A DNA stretch of 53,302 nt from Candidatus Saccharimonadales bacterium (lineage in GTDB: Bacteria; Patescibacteriota; Saccharimonadia; Saccharimonadales; UBA10212): positions 5,505-58,806 of the forward strand of contig JBBDKW010000017.1 in the NCBI GenBank assembly GCA_040879175.1. Direction: 5' to 3'. A model generated the notes under the pieces. It did not search any database and was not told the origin of the DNA. It worked only from the letters and a program-made list of their open reading frames with translations. The position numbers and the translations under genes are program-made. Numbering within the stretch: position 1 is the stretch's first letter; every line of letters starts with the position of its first letter. Shown piece by piece: positions 1,881 to 16,974 of this stretch.

Positions 1881-3107
1881 ATGCGGTATAAGCGGAATCA
1901 GTGGGGCTTCCATCATATTGGCCTGATTTTATTGGCGGTTGTACTGGTAGTAATCGGGCTGGTTGGTTATAGAGTGTTAAAACAAAACAGCCAAGACTCA
2001 GCCTCAAACATAATCAACAGCAACCAGCCGGCGGCCACTAAAGCCGTCAAGGCCGGCCAGCTGCTCAGCGGCGGCAAATGCCAGGGTACGGACAAGCTTA
2101 CCTTCACCCATTTGCCGATGCGCCCGCAGGATTTCTCCATCTTGATTCCATACGGGTTGGTAGTTGGCGACCACGTCACGCCTATCGACCACCAGTATTT
2201 TTCACCGGCTGACTATAAATCGCCGCGCGATGCTTACCCGGTCTATGCCATGGCTGACGCCACAATCACCGATATCCAACCCCGCACAAATGAGCGCGGA
2301 ACCGAATATAGGTTTGTTTTTACCTACAGCTGTACCTCGCTTTATTATTACGATCTGGTAACCAGCCTGGCGCCTAAATTAAAACAGGCTTACGATAGCC
2401 GCAGGGTCGAAATTCCGGTTAAAGCCGGCGAAAAAATCGGCGCCATTGGCGGCCAAACGCTCGATTTTGCCTATTGGGATACCGACAAGCCGCTGACCGG
2501 CTTTATCAAGCCGTCCAGTTATGATGCCGAAGCCTGGAAACTTTACACCGCCGACCCATACCCGCGCTACACCAAAGAATTAAGAGAGTTGCTTACCGCC
2601 CGCAACCCGCGCGTGGCCGAGCCGATCGCCGGCAAAATTGATTACGACCAGCCCGGCAAGCTCATCGGCAACTGGTTTTTAGAAGGCACTAATGGTTACG
2701 CTGGCCACCAAGGCACTCAGGGCGGCTCATACGCCACCGGCCATCTGTCTTTTGCGCCGGAGCATTTCGACCCTAGCTTCTTTGTCATCTCAATGGGTAA
2801 CTACAACGGCCAGCCGGCGCAGTTTGTCACCAAAGCCAACAAACCAGACCCCGCTGACGTCAGCCAGGCGTCCGGCCTGGTAAAATACGAACTCGTCCAG
2901 ATCAATTACCTTAAAGCCGACGGGAGTTTTTGGAACCGTACATCATTCGCCAAACCGATTAAGGCCGACAATTCCAATTCTGTGGTCGGTGTGGTGCTAG
3001 TCCAACTAATCGATGGCGGCAATAAGCTAAAGTTCCAAGCCTTCCCGAGCAAAACCGCCAGCCAAGTCAGCGGCTTTACATCAGCCGCCAAAACATACGA
3101 ACGCTAA
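1881..3107 (+). CDS. Hypothetical membrane-anchored extracytoplasmic protein
   Basis: 408-aa ORF with an N-terminal TM helix (HHIGLILLAVVLVVIGLVGY). I recognise no family with confidence. A weak LytM-like stretch (VKAGEKIGAIGG) lacks the HxH motif. Confidence 0.6.
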   Translation: MRYKRNQWGFHHIGLILLAVVLVVIGLVGYRVLKQNSQDSASNIINSNQPAATKAVKAGQLLSGGKCQGTDKLTFTHLPMRPQDFSILIPYGLVVGDHVTPIDHQYFSPADYKSPRDAYPVYAMADATITDIQPRTNERGTEYRFVFTYSCTSLYYYDLVTSLAPKLKQAYDSRRVEIPVKAGEKIGAIGGQTLDFAYWDTDKPLTGFIKPSSYDAEAWKLYTADPYPRYTKELRELLTARNPRVAEPIAGKIDYDQPGKLIGNWFLEGTNGYAGHQGTQGGSYATGHLSFAPEHFDPSFFVISMGNYNGQPAQFVTKANKPDPADVSQASGLVKYELVQINYLKADGSFWNRTSFAKPIKADNSNSVVGVVLVQLIDGGNKLKFQAFPSKTASQVSGFTSAAKTYER

Positions 3108-3167
3108 ACTCCATTCTCTACCCACTACTCCCTATCTCCGCTATAATCTAGACAAGCGGATTTTTAT

Positions 3168-3506
3168 ATGCCCATTGAATGTAATGTTTCGTCCAATCGT
3201 GGGGATTTAGAACGGCATCAGCCAATAGAACCGGGAAAAGCTCACTCCTATCATTTTAATGCCGGCTCAATTGGCATGGTCGTAGTCGCTTGTTGCCACG
3301 AAAGTGATGTCGGCGGGCGTATATATGTTATGGACGAAGAAAGTTTTGAGAATGCTATTGACGAATACGGGATTTATTCAGGCGAAAGCCTAGACAAAAA
3401 TCCTTACGAAATCCTTCCACCGGGGGGCACAATGCCCGTGACAGTCAGACCGGACGCAGGTGAAGACGAGACAACTTTCTTTTTTACCCACCAATCCCCA
3501 AACTAA
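3168..3506 (+). CDS. Hypothetical protein
   Basis: 112-aa ORF with no SD. A hairpin plus T-run (3137-3165) and a TATAAT box (3142-3147) lie just upstream. No recognisable motifs. Confidence 0.4.
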   Translation: MPIECNVSSNRGDLERHQPIEPGKAHSYHFNAGSIGMVVVACCHESDVGGRIYVMDEESFENAIDEYGIYSGESLDKNPYEILPPGGTMPVTVRPDAGEDETTFFFTHQSPN

Positions 3507-3597
3507 CGCCCTGCTTGCCCCGTTAGAGATTTATCTCTAATCGGGTGTATTCTTTCCTAGAGCAGGGGTATAATTTAAAGAACAGAACAGGGGTGTT

Positions 3598-3744
3598 ATG
3601 CCAAAAATTAATGAGGTTAGAAAAGTCTGTACAACTTGCGGTAAGCGGGCCAAAGTGTATCGAATGGTAGATATAGATGGCACCAATCTTGTAGAGTGCC
3701 TGGTTTGTTTGAATTGCGGCTCGGGCATGCCAGCTCTCTTGTAG
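3598..3744 (+). CDS. 48-aa zinc-ribbon protein with paired Cys motifs (CxxC ... CxxCxxC), absent from the supplied ORF track
   Basis: My own translation is MPKINEVRKVCTTCGKRAKVYRMVDIDGTNLVECLVCLNCGSGMPALL*. Two Cys pairs are spaced as in a zinc ribbon. TATAAT lies at 3569-3574 and a G-rich SD (AGGGGTG) upstream. The overlapping 98-aa - strand ORF looks like a shadow ORF. Confidence 0.5.
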   Translation: MPKINEVRKVCTTCGKRAKVYRMVDIDGTNLVECLVCLNCGSGMPALL

Positions 3745-3786
3745 CGATTCGTCCTTTTTGCTCATATTGACATCCTCTGGACGTCC

Positions 3787-4233
3787 ATGTTTACTTTCAG
3801 CATGAAGGGGAGTAAACATAGCGGCGACACCGGCGAGCTGGAAGTCGTCAATTTGGCAGCCTGCCCAAATTGTGGCAGCAAACTAATGTTGTTACCGCCA
3901 GGATTCCCATTATTTGATATCCAATGCACCAGATGTCTCTTCAGGGCGCAGATCAAAACTTCAAACCGTAAACCCACGGGTACTATACGCGGTGCAGGAT
4001 GGGATATATATGAAAAAGTGCTCAAGGCCGGAAACTTGGCCCCTCCGCTGATTGTCAATTATCACTGGGACGACAAAGAGGGCGAACACCACGAAATTCG
4101 GTTCTATCCGTTTATTCCTAAAGATAACGTCCAAAAATATATACTTTCAGCAACCGCCCGCCGAGCCAATTATAGGATGTTCAATTACGTCGGCCTCAAA
4201 GCTATACCGTTCTTAATACTATTCCCAAAGTAG
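3787..4233 (+). CDS. DpnI-like (Dam-replacing family) PD-(D/E)xK nuclease, catalytic domain only
   Basis: 148 aa. ACPNCGSKL-x12-FDIQCTRCLFRAQIKTS aligns by eye with the DpnI stretch YCPNCG-x-ADFYCNHCSEEFELKSK, giving a Zn-binding CxxC...CxxC and D...(E/Q)xK. A later SATARRANY resembles DpnI APTARRAGW. The protein ends before the winged-helix DNA-binding domain that DpnI carries. Confidence 0.55.
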   Translation: MFTFSMKGSKHSGDTGELEVVNLAACPNCGSKLMLLPPGFPLFDIQCTRCLFRAQIKTSNRKPTGTIRGAGWDIYEKVLKAGNLAPPLIVNYHWDDKEGEHHEIRFYPFIPKDNVQKYILSATARRANYRMFNYVGLKAIPFLILFPK

Positions 4234-4281
4234 TTCGATTTTTCCAAAACAGGGGTATAATCTAGATGAACGGAGTTTGGA

Positions 4282-4629
4282 ATGGCTAATCTGTCGGATC
4301 TGCAGAAAAAGGTAGTGGCGTTTAGAGACGCGCGCGACTGGAAGCAGTTTCATAACCCTAAGGACGTATCTCTATCATTAGCCTTAGAAGCCGCCGAACT
4401 TATGGAGCATTTCCAATGGAAGAGCCCAGGCGAAATCAAAAAGCATCTCAAAGCCAAAAATAGAGAAGTCAGCGAAGAGCTGATGGACGTTCTGTACTGG
4501 GTTTTGCTGTTTGCCCATGATTTAGGCATTAATATTCAGGATGAATTCGAACGCAAAATGGCCCAAAACGAAAAAAAGTATCCGGTTTCTAAGGCCAAAG
4601 GACGGTATACGAAATACAGCGAACTATGA
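4282..4629 (+). CDS. MazG-like nucleotide pyrophosphohydrolase (DCTPP1/MazG all-alpha NTP-PPase fold)
   Basis: 115 aa. FRDARDW.QFHNPKD...ALEAAELMEHFQW and EELMDVLYWVL are typical of small MazG-type NTP pyrophosphatases. SD is GGAG, 7 nt upstream. TATAAT lies at 4256-4261. Confidence 0.8.
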   Translation: MANLSDLQKKVVAFRDARDWKQFHNPKDVSLSLALEAAELMEHFQWKSPGEIKKHLKAKNREVSEELMDVLYWVLLFAHDLGINIQDEFERKMAQNEKKYPVSKAKGRYTKYSEL

Positions 4630-5726
4630 GCCCACAAGACATAGCTGATAGAGAAATATATAGATTCACCGGACCGCCAGAAAATTGGCTAACAGCTATT
4701 AAATTTATGACATGGGGACTCGAAGAAAAGCACCTTAATTATTGGCAGAAAATTGAACCTGGCGACATCTTTTTAATGCATTCGACCTCAACTAATACCT
4801 TAGTCAAGGACGCACCGTCATCTGTAATCGGTTTTGGAGTTGTAAGTCCAGAATTTAGCAAGAAGGATAGTACATTGTGGTTGCGAGAAATAGAAGAGCG
4901 TAGAAATATTTGGCCGCTGTTAGTACCATTCTCGGAGGTTTACCTTTTTAGCGAACTACGTCCGCACTTAGCGCTGGAAGCTCCAAACGGCAAAAACAAC
5001 GAGCTAATCATTAGCGAGGCTAAGGAATTATTGGCTAAAAGTGTGCCGTTATCACAGGAATTCCCAAAAATGGGTAGTTTCTCGAGAGTTAAGTCTGAGT
5101 TGGTCGTACAAATATTTGCACGTGCCGAGCACTTCTATCTGTATAGTAGCGTTGGCGTAACACGCGAATCACCTTTGAAATCCTCAGAATTCAAAAAAGT
5201 AGAAAGCGCTGAAGAGGTAGCTGCTATTAGAAAACCAGCAACTCTCGAGCAGCTTCAGATTGTTAAGAAGAAAACTATAAAGCTAGGAAAAACAACCTAT
5301 ACCAAGGACCTGCAGACACTTGAAAAGGCAGAAGATGCACACCAAGAAACCCTGAAAATGCTGTTTGAGCTACTTAAGTCCCATGGGTACAATACATATA
5401 ACAATCGCCACGTAGACCTTTTTGCGGTTAAAAATAACCATTCCTTTTTGTTCGAGGTTAAAAGTCTTGCTGCGAAAAACTTTAGGCCTCAGGCCAGGAA
5501 GGGGATAGTTCAGCTTTTCGAGTATGAATACTTCGAAGTTCGAAATTTTTTTGAAGATAAAGGCCCAATTGCGCGTCCAAATAAAGCATTGATTTTTTCT
5601 GAAGGGCCTAAGGATATGAACTACGTTAGTTTCATTAATGACCTGAATATTTCGGCTGGTTTTTTCTCAGAAAGAAAGCTTAAACCGTCAGGACAAAAAA
5701 CAATTTTGACGGGCCTGATTTCCTAG
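4626..5726 (+). CDS. EVE/PUA-like N-terminal domain fused to a C-terminal PD-(D/E)xK nuclease (putative modification-dependent restriction enzyme)
   Basis: 366 aa. The start overlaps the MazG stop (ATGA). The N-terminal pattern NWLTAIKFMTWG...IEPGDIFLMH...VIGFGVV...WPLLVPF is EVE/ASCH-like. The C-terminal VDLFAV...FLFEVKS...QLFEYEY matches D...ExK...QxxxY. Confidence 0.6.
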   Translation: MSPQDIADREIYRFTGPPENWLTAIKFMTWGLEEKHLNYWQKIEPGDIFLMHSTSTNTLVKDAPSSVIGFGVVSPEFSKKDSTLWLREIEERRNIWPLLVPFSEVYLFSELRPHLALEAPNGKNNELIISEAKELLAKSVPLSQEFPKMGSFSRVKSELVVQIFARAEHFYLYSSVGVTRESPLKSSEFKKVESAEEVAAIRKPATLEQLQIVKKKTIKLGKTTYTKDLQTLEKAEDAHQETLKMLFELLKSHGYNTYNNRHVDLFAVKNNHSFLFEVKSLAAKNFRPQARKGIVQLFEYEYFEVRNFFEDKGPIARPNKALIFSEGPKDMNYVSFINDLNISAGFFSERKLKPSGQKTILTGLIS

Positions 5727-5780
5727 TAATAGCGTTTTGCAATAGGCGTATAATCATAAGCATAAATAGGGGGTGGTGCG

Positions 5781-6353
5781 ATGTGGGGGTGGTTTACTGG
5801 GCTTTCATTATTAAAAAAGAGCCTACTGGTCGGCGGCTCAGTATTGACAGTAGGTACTGCTGCTGGAGTTGCTCAACCGCCTGAGCCGACACCTCCACCA
5901 CCAGAAACTCCTCCACAGGTCCAACAAGAAAAAATTGAGACGAAAGACGTAACTAAAGAACAGACCATTCCATTTCAAAAGCTGACTGAAAACGACTCTT
6001 CCTTAGAGAAAGGTAAAACAGCCATATCCACAGCTGGCGTTGAAGGCGTGCTTACTATCACCTATAGAATTACATACACTAACGGTATTGAAACAAGTCG
6101 TGAAAAAATATCAGAAGAGGTTACAAAACAGCCTATAAACGAAGTTACCAGAATCGGTACTAAGGTTGTACCGCAGGTTCAACCTCAGACATCCTGCACG
6201 CCTGGTTACTCACCATGCATTGCACCGGGATCTGATGTTGACTGTGCTGGTGGTAGTGGAGATGGACCGAGATATGTCTCTGGACCGGTTTCTGTTACAG
6301 GGTCTGACCCGTATGGTCTTGACCGCGACGGTGACGGTATCGGCTGCGAATAG
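5781..6353 (+). CDS. Membrane-anchored G5-domain protein with a C-terminal Excalibur calcium-binding domain
   Basis: 190 aa with an N-terminal TM helix and a Pro-rich linker. The G5-like block is TIPFQ...GVEGVLTITYRITYTNG...TRIGTK. The C-terminal DCAGG...DRDGDGIGCE is Excalibur-like. Confidence 0.75.
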   Translation: MWGWFTGLSLLKKSLLVGGSVLTVGTAAGVAQPPEPTPPPPETPPQVQQEKIETKDVTKEQTIPFQKLTENDSSLEKGKTAISTAGVEGVLTITYRITYTNGIETSREKISEEVTKQPINEVTRIGTKVVPQVQPQTSCTPGYSPCIAPGSDVDCAGGSGDGPRYVSGPVSVTGSDPYGLDRDGDGIGCE

Positions 6354-6420
6354 CTACAAATTTCTCTCATCGGAAGCCACAACCAACTCTTTTAAGCTGG
6401 GGCGGGGGTATAATTGAGCA

Positions 6421-7122
6421 ATGCCTAACGTTTTGGCGCACAACTACGTTGCTCACAGGGTGATGCGGGTGGCTACGCCTAATTTGGCGCTCGGCAGTGT
6501 GTTGCCGGACTTTGCCGGCATGTACCGTGATTACCAAGGTAAAAGAGTTGATTTAAGATTGTTTAGGGAAGGGATGTTGGGCTGGGGCATACATTTACAC
6601 CGCAGGACTGACGAGGTGTTTGATGCCCAGCCGGAAAAAACCAGAGCAACCGCCGACTTGGCGGCTCACTTACGAGCTTACGGTATTAAACCCGGCGCCG
6701 CGCGCCTGAGCGCCCATCTGCTGGCAGACATCATGCTGGACGGCGCTCTGATTGACCAGCACGAACCGCGCGGCGCCTTTGCGGCGCTGACCGAATACAT
6801 ATTAGACGGCGAAACCGAACTGCACTCGGGCAAATTTACGCCGGATTTTACTCAATTCGTTGAGGGATATTTTGAAGAAAGCGTACCAACTTATTACAGC
6901 GAGCCAGAAAAGTTGGCTCGTATAACAGCGCGCCGCCTGGCCAAAAGAGCCAGAACCGCCAAAGCGCGGGCGGATAGAACCATTGGCCGCGACCAGCTGC
7001 CGGCACTGACAGAAGTGATTGACATCCAAGCTGACCGGGTGCGCCGGCTGGGACTAAGTGCTCTCACCAGAACCATATTAATCCTTGAGCAACAGACCGA
7101 CGCCGGGGTTCCGGTCTCATGA
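6421..7122 (+). CDS. ACP phosphodiesterase (AcpH)-like protein
   Basis: 233 aa. MPNVLAHNYVAH...LPDFAG and GIHLHRRTDEVFD resemble E. coli AcpH (MNFLAHLHLAH...LADF, GIHMHRRIDVLTD). TATAAT at 6409-6414 lies only 6 nt from the ATG. Confidence 0.5.
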   Translation: MPNVLAHNYVAHRVMRVATPNLALGSVLPDFAGMYRDYQGKRVDLRLFREGMLGWGIHLHRRTDEVFDAQPEKTRATADLAAHLRAYGIKPGAARLSAHLLADIMLDGALIDQHEPRGAFAALTEYILDGETELHSGKFTPDFTQFVEGYFEESVPTYYSEPEKLARITARRLAKRARTAKARADRTIGRDQLPALTEVIDIQADRVRRLGLSALTRTILILEQQTDAGVPVS

Positions 7123-7730
7123 CCCTAGGGCAGAAAATTGTGCGGGCCGAGCGGGAACTAGCCAAGCTTGACCCTAAGCTGGCGCCGATAATCAAAAAAC
7201 AAAGCCCACTACTTTTTGAGCCGCGCGACAATTATTTTTTGTCGCTTTGCCGCTCGATTGTCGGGCAGCAGGTGTCGGTGGCGGCCGCGGCCACAATCTT
7301 TGGCCGCTTGGAGACCGCCACCGACATCGAACCGAAAAAAGTAGTGGCTTTGAGCGTGGAGCAGATAAAAGCCGTCGGCTTATCGCGCCAAAAAGCCGGC
7401 TACATCAAAGATCTGGCCCAACACTTCATTGATAACCCCAAAGTCTATAACCACCTCGGCCAGCTATCCGACGAAGAGGTGATAGCCGACCTAGTGGCGG
7501 TGAAGGGAATCGGCGCCTGGACAGCACAGATGTTTTTGATGTTCACGCTAGTGCGTTTGGACGTGTTCGCCCCCGACGACATTGGCCTGCAACGGGCAAT
7601 GGCTCGTCTTTACGGCTGGAAAAACCCTCCGAACCGGCAAAAACTCGAGCGTACGGCCGCCAAATGGCGTCCCTACCGCACGGTAGCCTGCTGGCACCTC
7701 TGGCAATCCCTCCGAAACACCCCAAAATAA
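7119..7730 (+). CDS. DNA-3-methyladenine glycosylase II / HhH-GPD base-excision repair protein (AlkA-like)
   Basis: 203 aa. HhH-GPD signature LVAVKGIGAWTAQMFLMF...DVFAPDDIGLQRA. The start overlaps the upstream stop (ATGA). Confidence 0.8.
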   Translation: MTLGQKIVRAERELAKLDPKLAPIIKKQSPLLFEPRDNYFLSLCRSIVGQQVSVAAAATIFGRLETATDIEPKKVVALSVEQIKAVGLSRQKAGYIKDLAQHFIDNPKVYNHLGQLSDEEVIADLVAVKGIGAWTAQMFLMFTLVRLDVFAPDDIGLQRAMARLYGWKNPPNRQKLERTAAKWRPYRTVACWHLWQSLRNTPK

Positions 7731-11868: not shown

Positions 11869-12087
11869 GTGATTAGGAAGATTATAAAAGTTGGTAACTC
11901 GGACGGCGTGGTCATACCGGCATCGGTTATGCGGGCGCACAAACTAAAAGCCGGCGACCGTGTGGAGGTGATTGTCAGCCCGCCGGGCGAGATCGCCCGG
12001 CGGCTGGAATTTTTACAAGAGCTAGACGATTTCCGTAAACACCGCGAAAAGCCGCAGAAGGCCCCTTCCGAAGACCAGCTCCTCTGA
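11869..12087 (+). CDS. AbrB/MazE/SpoVT-family DNA-binding protein (antitoxin-like regulator)
   Basis: 72 aa with a GTG start and a strong SD (GGAGG). KVGNSDGVVIPASVMRAHKLKAGDRVEV is the swapped-hairpin SpoVT/AbrB signature. Confidence 0.7.
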   Translation: MIRKIIKVGNSDGVVIPASVMRAHKLKAGDRVEVIVSPPGEIARRLEFLQELDDFRKHREKPQKAPSEDQLL

Positions 12088-16176: not shown

Positions 16177-16974
16177 ATGACATATGGGAGCGGGAAGTAT
16201 GAGTGGAGTGCGCCGTATAAGCCCGGACAAACGGCGCCGTATAAGATTAGTCGCAGTAAAATCGACCTATTCATTAATTGCCCCAGGTGTTTTTGGCTGG
16301 ATGCCAGATTAAAAATCAGCCGTCCAAAAGGCCCGCCTTTTACGCTAAACTCGGCAGTTGACGGACTATTAAAAAAAGAATTTGACGCTTTGCGTAAAGA
16401 CGGCAAACAACACCCGCTGCAAATCGAATATGGCATCGACGCCAGGCCAGTGAACCATGATAAATTGAATGTCTGGCGGCACAACTTTACGGGGGTACAA
16501 TTCCTACACGAACCGACCAATTTGCTAGTTTTTGGCGCTATTGACGATCTATGGCAGGATTCCAAAGGCCAATACATAGTTTTGGACTACAAATCGACTT
16601 CTAAAGCCGGCAAAATAACCGAGCTGGGCAATGAATCCTGGCACGATGCTTACCGCCGTCAGCTGGGCGTTTACCAATGGTTGCTACGCCAAAACGGCTT
16701 ACCGGTAAGCGACAAAGGCTACTGGCTTTACTGTAACGCCGACAAAAACGGTAAGACATTCGGTAAAAAGCTGGAGTTTGAATTGACTTTGATTGAAGAA
16801 AAAATCGACGATAAATGGGTCGAACCTACACTGCTTGAAATCAAAAAGACGCTTGATTCTGATGAAATGCCCAAGGACGCAGCTACTTGCGAGCACTGTG
16901 GCTATGCTCGTTCCCGTACCGAGCTGACACTCAACCACCTTAAAGACAAAAAAACCACCAAAACCCGCTCTTAA
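16177..16974 (+). CDS. PD-(D/E)xK nuclease with Cas4/AddB-type four-Cys cluster signature (RecB-family exonuclease-like)
   Basis: 265 aa. INCPRCFW near the N-terminus and CEHCGY near the C-terminus give the C...C / CxxC layout. IDDLW...YIVLDYKST matches D...D/ExK. QLGVYQWLL matches QxxxY. Confidence 0.65.
   Translation: MTYGSGKYEWSAPYKPGQTAPYKISRSKIDLFINCPRCFWLDARLKISRPKGPPFTLNSAVDGLLKKEFDALRKDGKQHPLQIEYGIDARPVNHDKLNVWRHNFTGVQFLHEPTNLLVFGAIDDLWQDSKGQYIVLDYKSTSKAGKITELGNESWHDAYRRQLGVYQWLLRQNGLPVSDKGYWLYCNADKNGKTFGKKLEFELTLIEEKIDDKWVEPTLLEIKKTLDSDEMPKDAATCEHCGYARSRTELTLNHLKDKKTTKTRS

Follow-up and report, generated by a model that had tools for sequence, protein, structure and literature searches.

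Type IV restriction is commonly assumed to work without a protective partner, the host simply lacking the modification that is targeted. The modification-dependent endonucleases of the PUA superfamily need no cognate methyltransferase (PMC7897488, PMC6765204), and a 2019 architecture screen found a single case of a PUA domain combined with a PD-(D/E)xK nuclease, with an intervening DUF3427. MazG domains have been flagged in the literature as predicted, unvalidated defence domains. A census of McrBC systems mentions neither MazG nor Nudix enzymes nor pyrophosphatases, and a 2020 census of EVE proteins does not mention MazG, noting only MutT homologues beside some SauUSI genes. Here we describe a pair of genes in which a candidate reader-nuclease directly follows a MazG-like gene. 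The pair lies in a stretch of 53,302 nucleotides from Candidatus Saccharimonadales bacterium (assembly GCA_040879175.1, contig JBBDKW010000017.1, positions 5,505 to 58,806), hereafter the window. The first gene (4282..4629, forward strand) encodes a 115-amino-acid MazG-like protein, a DCTPP1-type all-alpha nucleoside-triphosphate pyrophosphohydrolase. The second (4626..5726, forward strand) encodes a 366-amino-acid reader-nuclease fusion, and its start overlaps the MazG stop.

The nuclease gene was never seen alone. A scan of one genome per species, with the family alignment as query, returned 43 loci; the same collection scanned with a single protein as query gave no match. Thirty-nine of the 43 were evaluable, having a full-length homologue and enough upstream DNA; two that run into a contig end (L004, L039) and two short partial matches (L042, L043) were left out. 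A MazG-like gene, 38-63% identical to that of the window, lies just upstream on the same strand in all 39, and in 36 of them the two genes abut or overlap. A RadC-type JAB gene stands between them in three loci (L014:2380-3057, L015:3201-3935 and L016:5249-5977). The carriers of the 43 loci belong to many Patescibacteria lineages and to Omnitrophota, Elusimicrobia, Firestonebacteria and Aminicenantes, and include a Nanoarchaeia metagenome-assembled genome.

Close relatives keep the arrangement in unrelated surroundings. At 79% identity, the four-nucleotide overlap is retained and the pair sits between a PCC-domain gene and a UvrD/PD-(D/E)xK helicase gene; at 65% identity the overlap is again retained, and the pair is found in a ribosomal-protein superoperon between secY and infA, an unusual site for accessory genes. 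Copies in the ribosomal superoperon (L047:8430-9865 and L048:6119-7554) have glyoxalase-like, DUF1508, clpP and 23S_rRNA_IVP-family genes there too. A distant version is carried by a plasmid of a cultured haloarchaeon, Halosegnis marinus (NZ_CP119803.1). Its nuclease homologue has 369 amino acids and 24.5% identity (hhalign probability 99.3%, E 5e-20), and the neighbouring MazG-like protein is 36% identical to that of the window (PF12643, 1.6e-11), with the two genes lying tail-to-tail and overlapping (L130:4971-6439). AddAB-like, ExoVII and cas6 genes are found near this pair, and H. marinus could be an experimentally tractable host for the system. Because the pairing spans domains of life and occurs in two gene arrangements, it is strong evidence for a functional link between the two genes. 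The patchy distribution across phyla and domains at 40-50% identity, the variable flanks, the location in a low-GC islet and the ribosomal-operon insertion indicate that the pair moves as a unit, as a mobile accessory cassette. No relatives were present on IMG/VR viral contigs or in GenBank phages, so a phage origin is not supported; in BFVD only small EVE-like proteins matched, the best-scoring of them from giant viruses. Exact-protein look-ups of the flanking genes, made for strains with an empty site, returned none or only a fragment of the same genome.

Viewed from the MazG side, the association is loose. A metagenome scan with the MazG alignment matched at least about 600 stretches, of which the best 80 (L049-L128), not a random sample, were analysed; their MazG genes are 43-70% identical to that of the window. 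Partners were counted in the 71 of these loci that have at least 300 nucleotides of downstream sequence, and, as genes were called by a simple longest-open-reading-frame procedure, the counts of minor neighbour classes are approximate. Only 4 of the 71 carry the EVE-nuclease. The co-conservation of the two genes suggested by an earlier interpretation made from the sequence alone (the sequence-only reading) therefore holds from nuclease to MazG, and fails in the reverse direction. The commonest next gene (37 gene-called loci, 39 by tblastn) encodes an SLFN-group-3/DUF2075 helicase with an N-terminal PD-(D/E)xK domain, and usually overlaps MazG or starts within a few bases of it. This helicase-nuclease matches the PADLOC candidate PDC-S41 (4.8e-22), with Nhi and AbiO matches as well; one example (L103:3354-5798) also has a C-terminal S24 peptidase. 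A third partner, a 372-amino-acid protein in four loci, has a restriction-enzyme-like C-terminus (PADLOC REase_II, 6e-8) and an N-terminus that bears a faint likeness to the reader family in a profile comparison (39% probability over 35 columns). Further partners or neighbours are RadC, SRA-HNH, Vsr, and Dcm together with Vsr, and beside one MazG copy stands a gene that reads as uracil phosphoribosyltransferase-like. In L106:3001-5152, MazG is followed by a C5-cytosine methyltransferase and Vsr, and in L077:61-966 by Vsr directly; these arrangements tie MazG to 5-methylcytosine metabolism independently of the nuclease.

The MazG copies do not sort by partner. EVE-linked copies share on average 57.2% identity and SLFN-linked copies 57.6%; across the two groups the mean is 57.3%. 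Nearest-neighbour labels are mixed, with no partner-specific groups. Four genome loci contain both partners, MazG being followed first by the EVE-nuclease and then by the SLFN helicase. By these sequence comparisons, a single MazG clade is the common upstream gene of several interchangeable nuclease effectors, without co-evolution. Given that just 4 of 71 loci carry the present nuclease, attention belongs to MazG together with an exchangeable nuclease and not to the pair alone. PDC-S41, at present a single-gene PADLOC candidate, may really be a two-gene system with MazG.

The assignment of the 115-amino-acid protein to the MazG/DCTPP1-like enzymes, proposed earlier from short peptide motifs, was borne out by Pfam PF12643 (MazG-like; 65.7 bits against a cut-off of 27, E 4.4e-18) and by matches to sequences in the Protein Data Bank (PDB). 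Among solved structures it is closest to an archaeal pyrophosphatase (4qgp, 8e-19) and to DCTPP1/RS21-C6 of mouse and human (approximately 1e-15). Eleven positions (W20, H24, K27, E36, E39, E42, W46, E66, D69, K92 and Y100) are invariant in 37 nuclease-linked MazG copies. Among them are the residues of the metal-binding ExxE...ExxD motif, where E36, E39, E66 and D69 align with DCTPP1 E63, E66, E95 and D98. In the DCTPP1 structure, Trp47 and Trp73 sandwich the cytosine ring, His38 and His51 act as cytosine selectivity filters, Asp98 touches the deoxyribose hydroxyl, Tyr129 touches the alpha-phosphate, and Trp47 lies near the C5 substituent (PMC13291643). It is also documented that DCTPP1 clears 5-methyl-deoxycytidine triphosphate (5-methyl-dCTP) and other C5-modified dCTPs, and that it prevents misincorporation of methylated dCTP. 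When these pocket residues are carried over by pairwise alignment, Trp47, Trp73, His51, Asp98 and Tyr129 are conserved in the window MazG as W20, W46, H24, D69 and Y100, as are Phe41 and Phe50 (F14 and F23); His38 is lost, with V11 at its position. Since the metal ligands, the tryptophan sandwich and the His51 filter are all kept, the protein looks like an active enzyme with a largely dCTP-type pocket.

The 366-amino-acid protein is a member of a well-populated, unannotated family. It has at least 346 homologues in 90% clusters, and a profile search of 1.84 billion 50% cluster representatives gave 965 matches to the family at E<=1e-3 and 41 at E<=1e-30. No curated sequence model in Pfam, NCBIfam or PADLOC, and no PDB sequence, recognises it above threshold. 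The sub-threshold matches are Hjc (0.11) and PDDEXK_9 (0.46) in Pfam, SduA (0.0017) in PADLOC and PRK00809/UPF0310 in NCBIfam (1.1e-5, 25 bits against a cut-off of 139), together with weak matches to the PDB sequences of PH1033 (0.12-0.37) and Hjc (0.14). A designer PPR match to the linker, with many weak repeated stretches, was dismissed as a low-complexity artefact. We therefore turned to structure. An AlphaFold2 model built on 48 homologues has a mean predicted local distance difference test score (pLDDT) of 85.9 and a predicted template modelling score (pTM) of 0.71, and resolves into an N-terminal domain, a linker and a C-terminal domain.

The N-terminal domain (residues ~10-175, 4653..5150, forward strand) is a candidate modified-base reader. 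Its model blocks have pLDDT mostly of 87-95 over residues 11-140. In a Foldseek search of residues ~10-170 against the PDB, the UPF0310 proteins PH1033 and MJECL36 lead (E 4e-6, probability 1.0), followed by YTH domains and human THYN1 bound to 5-methylcytosine DNA (7e-3 to 8e-3); the EVE proteins PpR72 and Atu2648, and MspJI, are also among the matches. Pfam EVE (PF01878) does not match the window protein at E<=1, and matches 2 of the 48 family members, at best with 0.015. The EVE/PUA-like N-terminus of the sequence-only reading is thus supported by fold and not by a curated hidden Markov model, and, judging from secondary structure and aligned lengths, it reaches to about residue 170, beyond the roughly 120 residues first allotted to it. 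As modelled, the N-terminus has an EVE/YTH-type fold without being a Pfam EVE member by sequence. W21, W30, W85, W96, the GD at 46-47 and H52 are invariant in an alignment of 48 sequences, and the four tryptophans would be compatible with a flipped modified base held in an aromatic pocket.

This domain recurs in other proteins. By tblastn of plasmids, its N-terminal ~100 residues, at 33-34% identity, begin genes annotated as 'AAA/MoxR family ATPase' on haloarchaeal plasmids; at one such locus an MrcB_N-domain protein, the reader-bearing AAA_5 protein and an overlapping downstream gene with a weak DUF2357 match are adjacent. An exhaustive profile search placed the reader N-terminal to AAA_5 modules in P0157 and P0214, and after an MrcB_N domain in P0160. 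Its location in the AAA_5 proteins is the DNA-reader position of McrBC-type restriction. The same search found the nuclease domain behind other N-termini. As each half occurs in other architectures, reader and nuclease are modules that have been shuffled, which is common among restriction and defence proteins. Longer family members (P0145, P0143, P0136, P0150 and P0158) have N-terminal extensions of 100-200 amino acids without a Pfam match, and one extension resembles a second PUA-like module, which suggests tandem readers in some versions. A MazG-nuclease fusion was sought among N-terminally extended homologues, and neither Pfam nor a MazG profile found one; their extensions contain other domains.

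Between reader and nuclease lies a variable linker (residues ~176-225, 5151..5300, forward strand), weakly conserved and rich in indels in the family alignment, with pLDDT of 51-83 and two segments below 50. The PD-(D/E)xK domain follows (residues 226-366, 5301..5723, forward strand). Modelled alone, residues 224-366 reach a pLDDT of 88.6 and a pTM of 0.85 and form an alpha-beta-beta-beta-alpha-beta core. The Foldseek matches of the domain are exclusively PD-(D/E)xK proteins: R2 retrotransposon endonuclease, AF2093, XisH, Hjc, AF1548, N.BspD6I, NucS and McrC, with E values from 1.6e-3 to ~0.2 (leading matches 1.6e-3 to 3e-2, probability 0.92-1.0). Curated nuclease families (Hjc, PDDEXK_9 and others) remain below cut-off; Hjc matches 30 of 48 members, with a best value of 0.0064. 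The catalytic codons are D264 (5415-5417), E277 (5454-5456) and K279 (5460-5462), with Q296 and Y300 forming the QxxxY motif. No substitution of D264, K279 or Q296 occurs across 48 sequences, and E277 and Y300 are kept in at least 90%. In the model, D264 lies at the start of strand 265-269, E277 and K279 fall within strand 272-279, and Q296 and Y300 are on the expected helix. Fold search and the conserved D...ExK...QxxxY thus uphold the nuclease call of the sequence-only reading. One spacer in that reading was miscounted: nine residues were given between VDLFAV and FLFEVKS, and there are five (KNNHS), so that the full motif is VDLFAV-x5-FLFEVKS-x15-QLFEYEY.

We propose that the pair is a two-gene, type IV-like modification-dependent restriction module with MazG acting on the nucleotide pool, a reading to which we give about an even chance of being right. 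Its architecture is that of type IV enzymes, with a predicted reader joined to a nuclease, and what is conserved as a unit is MazG and the nuclease only, without a cognate methyltransferase. The EVE-type domain of the large protein would read a modified base and the PD-(D/E)xK domain would cut. The base would most likely be a C5-modified cytosine in DNA, as suggested by the preference of DCTPP1 for C5-modified dCTP, by the fact that THYN1 and EVE-HNH are the characterised DNA-binding EVE proteins, and by the presence of SRA-HNH, Dcm and Vsr genes in the surroundings of this MazG clade. MazG would hydrolyse the matching modified dCTP to the monophosphate. It would work on the pool of free nucleotides rather than serve as a dedicated subunit; the intermixing of copies with different partners argues for action in trans on a small molecule, against a co-evolving complex. 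Its main role would be to bar salvaged or recycled modified nucleotides from host DNA, so that the host escapes its own nuclease, the inverse of the methyltransferase in classical restriction-modification. Starving phages that build their DNA from such modified dNTPs would be a side effect. We favour self-protection as the selected function, since MazG takes the upstream position in all operonic arrangements and no nuclease was seen without it. The sequence-only reading had proposed a two-layer defence, in which the operon drains a modified dNTP pool and also cuts the modified DNA. The evidence is compatible with such a defence, and self-protection accounts no less well for the gene order and the one-way dependence.

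In the window, both genes are real rather than chance open reading frames, because the 366-amino-acid protein has many homologues and the 115-amino-acid protein matches the Pfam MazG-like model. The two reading frames, their ATGA overlap at 4626-4629 and all the peptide motifs quoted in the sequence-only reading were found as described. That reading also placed a single TATAAT box ahead of the pair, with nothing promoter-like between the two genes. The -10-like hexamer is present (4256..4261, forward strand), and its role as a promoter was not supported: no usable -35 accompanies it (TTCGAT, two of six positions), the hexamer is not among the sites listed by a consensus promoter scan, and promoter-like sites in 3000-6500 do not exceed those of shuffled sequence (4 found against 5.9 +/- 2.8). 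It is the four-nucleotide overlap, recurring in close relatives, that argues for an operon, and not the promoter. A GGAG Shine-Dalgarno-like motif (4272..4275, forward strand) can be read 6 nucleotides 5' of the MazG ATG.

The GC profile drops around the pair, to 0.40-0.42 across the two genes and 0.40-0.47 over approximately 3.0-6.3 kb, between flanks of 0.50-0.57 on both sides. This trough (3000..6300) looks like an acquired islet. It spans the pair together with an unannotated 112-amino-acid open reading frame (3168-3506) and a DpnI-like one, and reaches into the start of a G5-domain gene. Its borders show no tRNA, repeat or integrase, and no tRNA or Rfam RNA in the window marks an integration site. 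The window is otherwise ordinary chromosome, with genes for SecA, CTP synthase, an aminoacyl-tRNA synthetase and a PBP; the CTP synthase shares 94% identity with proteins assigned to Candidatus Saccharibacteria bacterium. The DpnI-like open reading frame (3787..4233, forward strand, 148 amino acids) is the only defence-like neighbour of the pair in the window. It matches Pfam DpnI (2.7e-7) and PADLOC mREase_II (8.7e-4) over the DpnI catalytic domain only, and has the Zn-ribbon CxxC...CxxC; aligned with a full DpnI homologue, it is seen to have no C-terminal winged-helix domain and to carry D...QxK instead of D...ExK. It was considered as a third member of the module and rejected, as none of the 43 related loci has a homologue beside the pair. 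An HhH-GPD base-excision glycosylase gene (7119-7730, forward strand) lies 1.4 kb downstream of the pair and outside the islet; its closeness is probably coincidental. Farther along the same strand are a MazE/AbrB-type antitoxin-like open reading frame (11869-12087, Pfam MazE_antitoxin 7.8e-9), downstream of which no recognisable toxin gene was identified, and a Cas4-like PD-(D/E)xK protein (16177-16974, PDDEXK_1 1e-13) without CRISPR context. PDDEXK_1 proteins of this type are also found near the pair in four related loci.

Among the 150 open reading frames adjoining the pair in the 43 genome loci, RadC is the most frequent class (10), followed by PDC-S41/SLFN helicases, SoFic (PADLOC) and Cas4-like PD-(D/E)xK proteins (4 each), DRT-type reverse transcriptases (3-4), Fic (Pfam), NYN, SNase and Bro-N (3 each), and C5-cytosine methyltransferases and AbiEii-type ATPases (2 each). 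Shedu SduA and full DpnI also occur, and the remaining neighbours are ordinary genes. The neighbourhood is mixed; in qualitative terms it contains more defence and mobile-element genes than ordinary chromosome. The RadC-like JAB/UPF0758 gene is a recurrent third member, present in 10 of the 43 genome loci and in five of the MazG metagenome loci; besides the three loci in which it separates MazG from the nuclease, it precedes MazG in six others.

Several of these observations weigh against the restriction module as we propose it. The SLFN helicase-nuclease, which accompanies MazG most often, contains no modified-base reader that could be recognised, so the modified-cytosine logic may not extend to every MazG partner, and certain MazG copies of the clade look like standalone or housekeeping genes. 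Of the two cytosine filters of DCTPP1, His38 is not conserved. A predicted fold match cannot separate 5-methylcytosine or 5-hydroxymethylcytosine DNA from N6-methyladenine (m6A) RNA or some other ligand. In a few loci a C5-cytosine methyltransferase is found close to the pair, which is awkward for a nuclease that would cut all 5-methylcytosine DNA. Patescibacteria, Saccharibacteria among them, are generally considered avid scavengers of nucleotides; the CTP synthase encoded in the window means that this host is not wholly dependent on pyrimidine salvage.

Of the alternatives, ligand-triggered abortive infection survives best, and we consider it unlikely. Here the EVE-like domain would sense a free modified nucleotide that is released or produced in the course of infection and switch on the nuclease against cellular or phage nucleic acid, while MazG would either supply the ligand by turning a modified dNTP into the dNMP, or clear background ligand to set the threshold. 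A 2026 preprint provides a precedent, in which a PUA-like domain binds m6-dAMP to activate a dNTP-depleting effector and rare variants have a MazG-like domain in place of the effector (bioRxiv 10.64898/2026.01.15.699771); the present pair likewise ties a PUA-like domain strictly to a MazG enzyme. However, the preprint deals with another PUA family, the MazG variants there retain a HAD partner that the present pair lacks, and the PUA fusions it reports are with HEPN, TIR, HNH and McrB, with no PD-(D/E)xK fusion mentioned. Moreover, a PUA sensor is missing from the SLFN helicase-nuclease, the commonest MazG partner, and that the reader is shared with McrB-type DNA translocases favours the reading of DNA.

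Housekeeping genome hygiene is a rather unlikely explanation too. On this account MazG cleans non-canonical dNTPs, and the reader-nuclease nicks host DNA wherever that non-canonical base, or a damaged one, has been incorporated, to start repair, the two forming a back-up pair suited to small, salvage-dependent genomes. Such a role would be natural for DCTPP1-type proteins, the classic 'house-cleaning' enzymes, and for a family that is commonest in Patescibacteria; it would also suit the MazG copies of the clade that are standalone or lie beside pyrimidine-salvage or Dcm/Vsr repair genes, and the repair genes (HhH-GPD glycosylase, AddAB-like, ExoVII) in the immediate flanks of the pair in the window and its relatives. 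Set against this, the patchy spread across phyla and domains, the variable flanks, the low-GC islet and the ribosomal-operon copy are those of a mobile accessory cassette and not of core repair, the neighbours are enriched in defence genes, and both domains have been shuffled with McrB-type and other restriction-like architectures.

An RNA-directed system, in which the EVE/YTH-like domain would read a modified RNA base such as m6A, the PD-(D/E)xK domain would cleave RNA and MazG would act on modified NTPs, is improbable. YTH m6A-RNA readers are among the structural matches, and some McrBC relatives with similar readers have been predicted to target RNA (PMC11090510), but the closest characterised MazG relative is specific for deoxy-CTP and its deoxyribose contact, Asp98, is kept as D69, the fold matches of the nuclease are DNA enzymes, and the SRA-HNH, Dcm and Vsr partners are DNA-5-methylcytosine proteins. 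Finally, that MazG is merely a common gene beside which the nuclease tends to land, as the many more numerous clade MazG genes with their many different neighbours might suggest, is very hard to reconcile with pairing in 39 of 39 loci, the conserved start/stop overlap, co-transfer into unrelated contexts and convergent pairing at 24% identity, and this explanation is close to refuted.

Returning to the modification-dependent module, a nuclease family that is never found without a pool sanitiser suggests that the absence of a modification in the host is not always enough; where modified nucleotides are salvaged or recycled, self DNA may need active protection. We also entertain, tentatively and as a minority view, the broader idea that DCTPP1-like MazG is a general, portable module of 'immunity by pool sanitation', which prevents self DNA from gaining a mark instead of marking self. 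MazG would then license the carriage and exchange of otherwise self-toxic nucleases, namely the EVE-PD-(D/E)xK fusion, the SLFN/DUF2075 helicase-nucleases, the REase-like fusion and SRA-HNH, especially in nucleotide-scavenging organisms such as Patescibacteria. Protection of self DNA by a nucleotide-pool enzyme, if confirmed, would be a new logic for restriction and would explain why MazG-type genes recur in defence predictions with no role assigned to them, and it would link the human 'house-cleaning' family of DCTPP1 to prokaryotic immunity. The compact reader-nuclease would also be a possible reagent for mapping modified cytosines.

How far the pair departs from described systems can be judged feature by feature. 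PADLOC-DB v2 has a model for neither protein, with no match for MazG and only SduA (0.0017) for the large protein, and in literature searches no paper was found that joins MazG to EVE and restriction, nor one that joins it to DUF2075 or, in the present sense, to type IV restriction; both agree with the earlier statement that no characterised system has this pairing. Reader-nuclease PUA fusions as such are an already known type IV kind. VcaM4I and TspA15I (EVE-HNH), MspJI (SRA-like) and YenY4I (EVE-DUF3427-PD-(D/E)xK) likewise carry a PUA-like reader and a nuclease on a single chain. Unlike these enzymes, the present nuclease has its PD-(D/E)xK domain fused directly to the EVE-like domain, its reader is too divergent for Pfam EVE, and it has an obligate MazG partner gene, which is unreported for PUA-superfamily modification-dependent enzymes. 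It is this reader-nuclease family with an obligate MazG partner that is new.

McrBC-type systems with EVE or MrcB_N readers share the reader domain, which recurs at AAA_5 N-termini of haloarchaeal plasmids and metagenomes, but the present pair has neither GTPase motor nor McrC, carries reader and nuclease on one chain and has a pyrophosphohydrolase as partner. PUA-Cal-HAD and PUA-MazG-HAD, the systems of the 2026 preprint, similarly combine a PUA-like sensor with an enzyme that targets nucleotide triphosphates. In PUA-Cal-HAD, the PUA domain senses a free nucleotide, a phosphoesterase is the effector and a HAD phosphatase is required, whereas in the present pair the fused effector is a nuclease, MazG is a separate small protein and there is no HAD gene. 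SauUSI-type enzymes with an adjacent MutT/Nudix gene provide another case of type IV restriction beside a small nucleotide pyrophosphohydrolase (PMC7641849). They differ in that the present enzyme is an all-alpha MazG and not a Nudix protein and that the nucleases are dissimilar; the SauUSI association itself is left unanalysed in that paper. On the MazG side, DCTPP1/RS21-C6 and 4QGP have the same metal ligands, tryptophan sandwich, His51 filter and equivalents of Asp98 and Tyr129 as the window protein. Unlike DCTPP1, the latter is a 115-amino-acid core, has V11 for His38, and is encoded in a mobile operon with a nuclease and not as a standalone housekeeping gene.

The PDC-S41/Nhi/AbiO-like SLFN-group-3 (DUF2075) proteins bear on the pair in a different way, as the commonest partner of the same MazG clade and as the gene directly behind the EVE-nuclease in four loci. 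They combine PD-(D/E)xK with an SF1-like helicase and have no PUA reader, and their PADLOC entry is a single gene without MazG, for which the shared-MazG observation may supply the missing second gene. The MazG clade as a shared accessory of several nuclease effectors is the wider point and probably the more interesting one.

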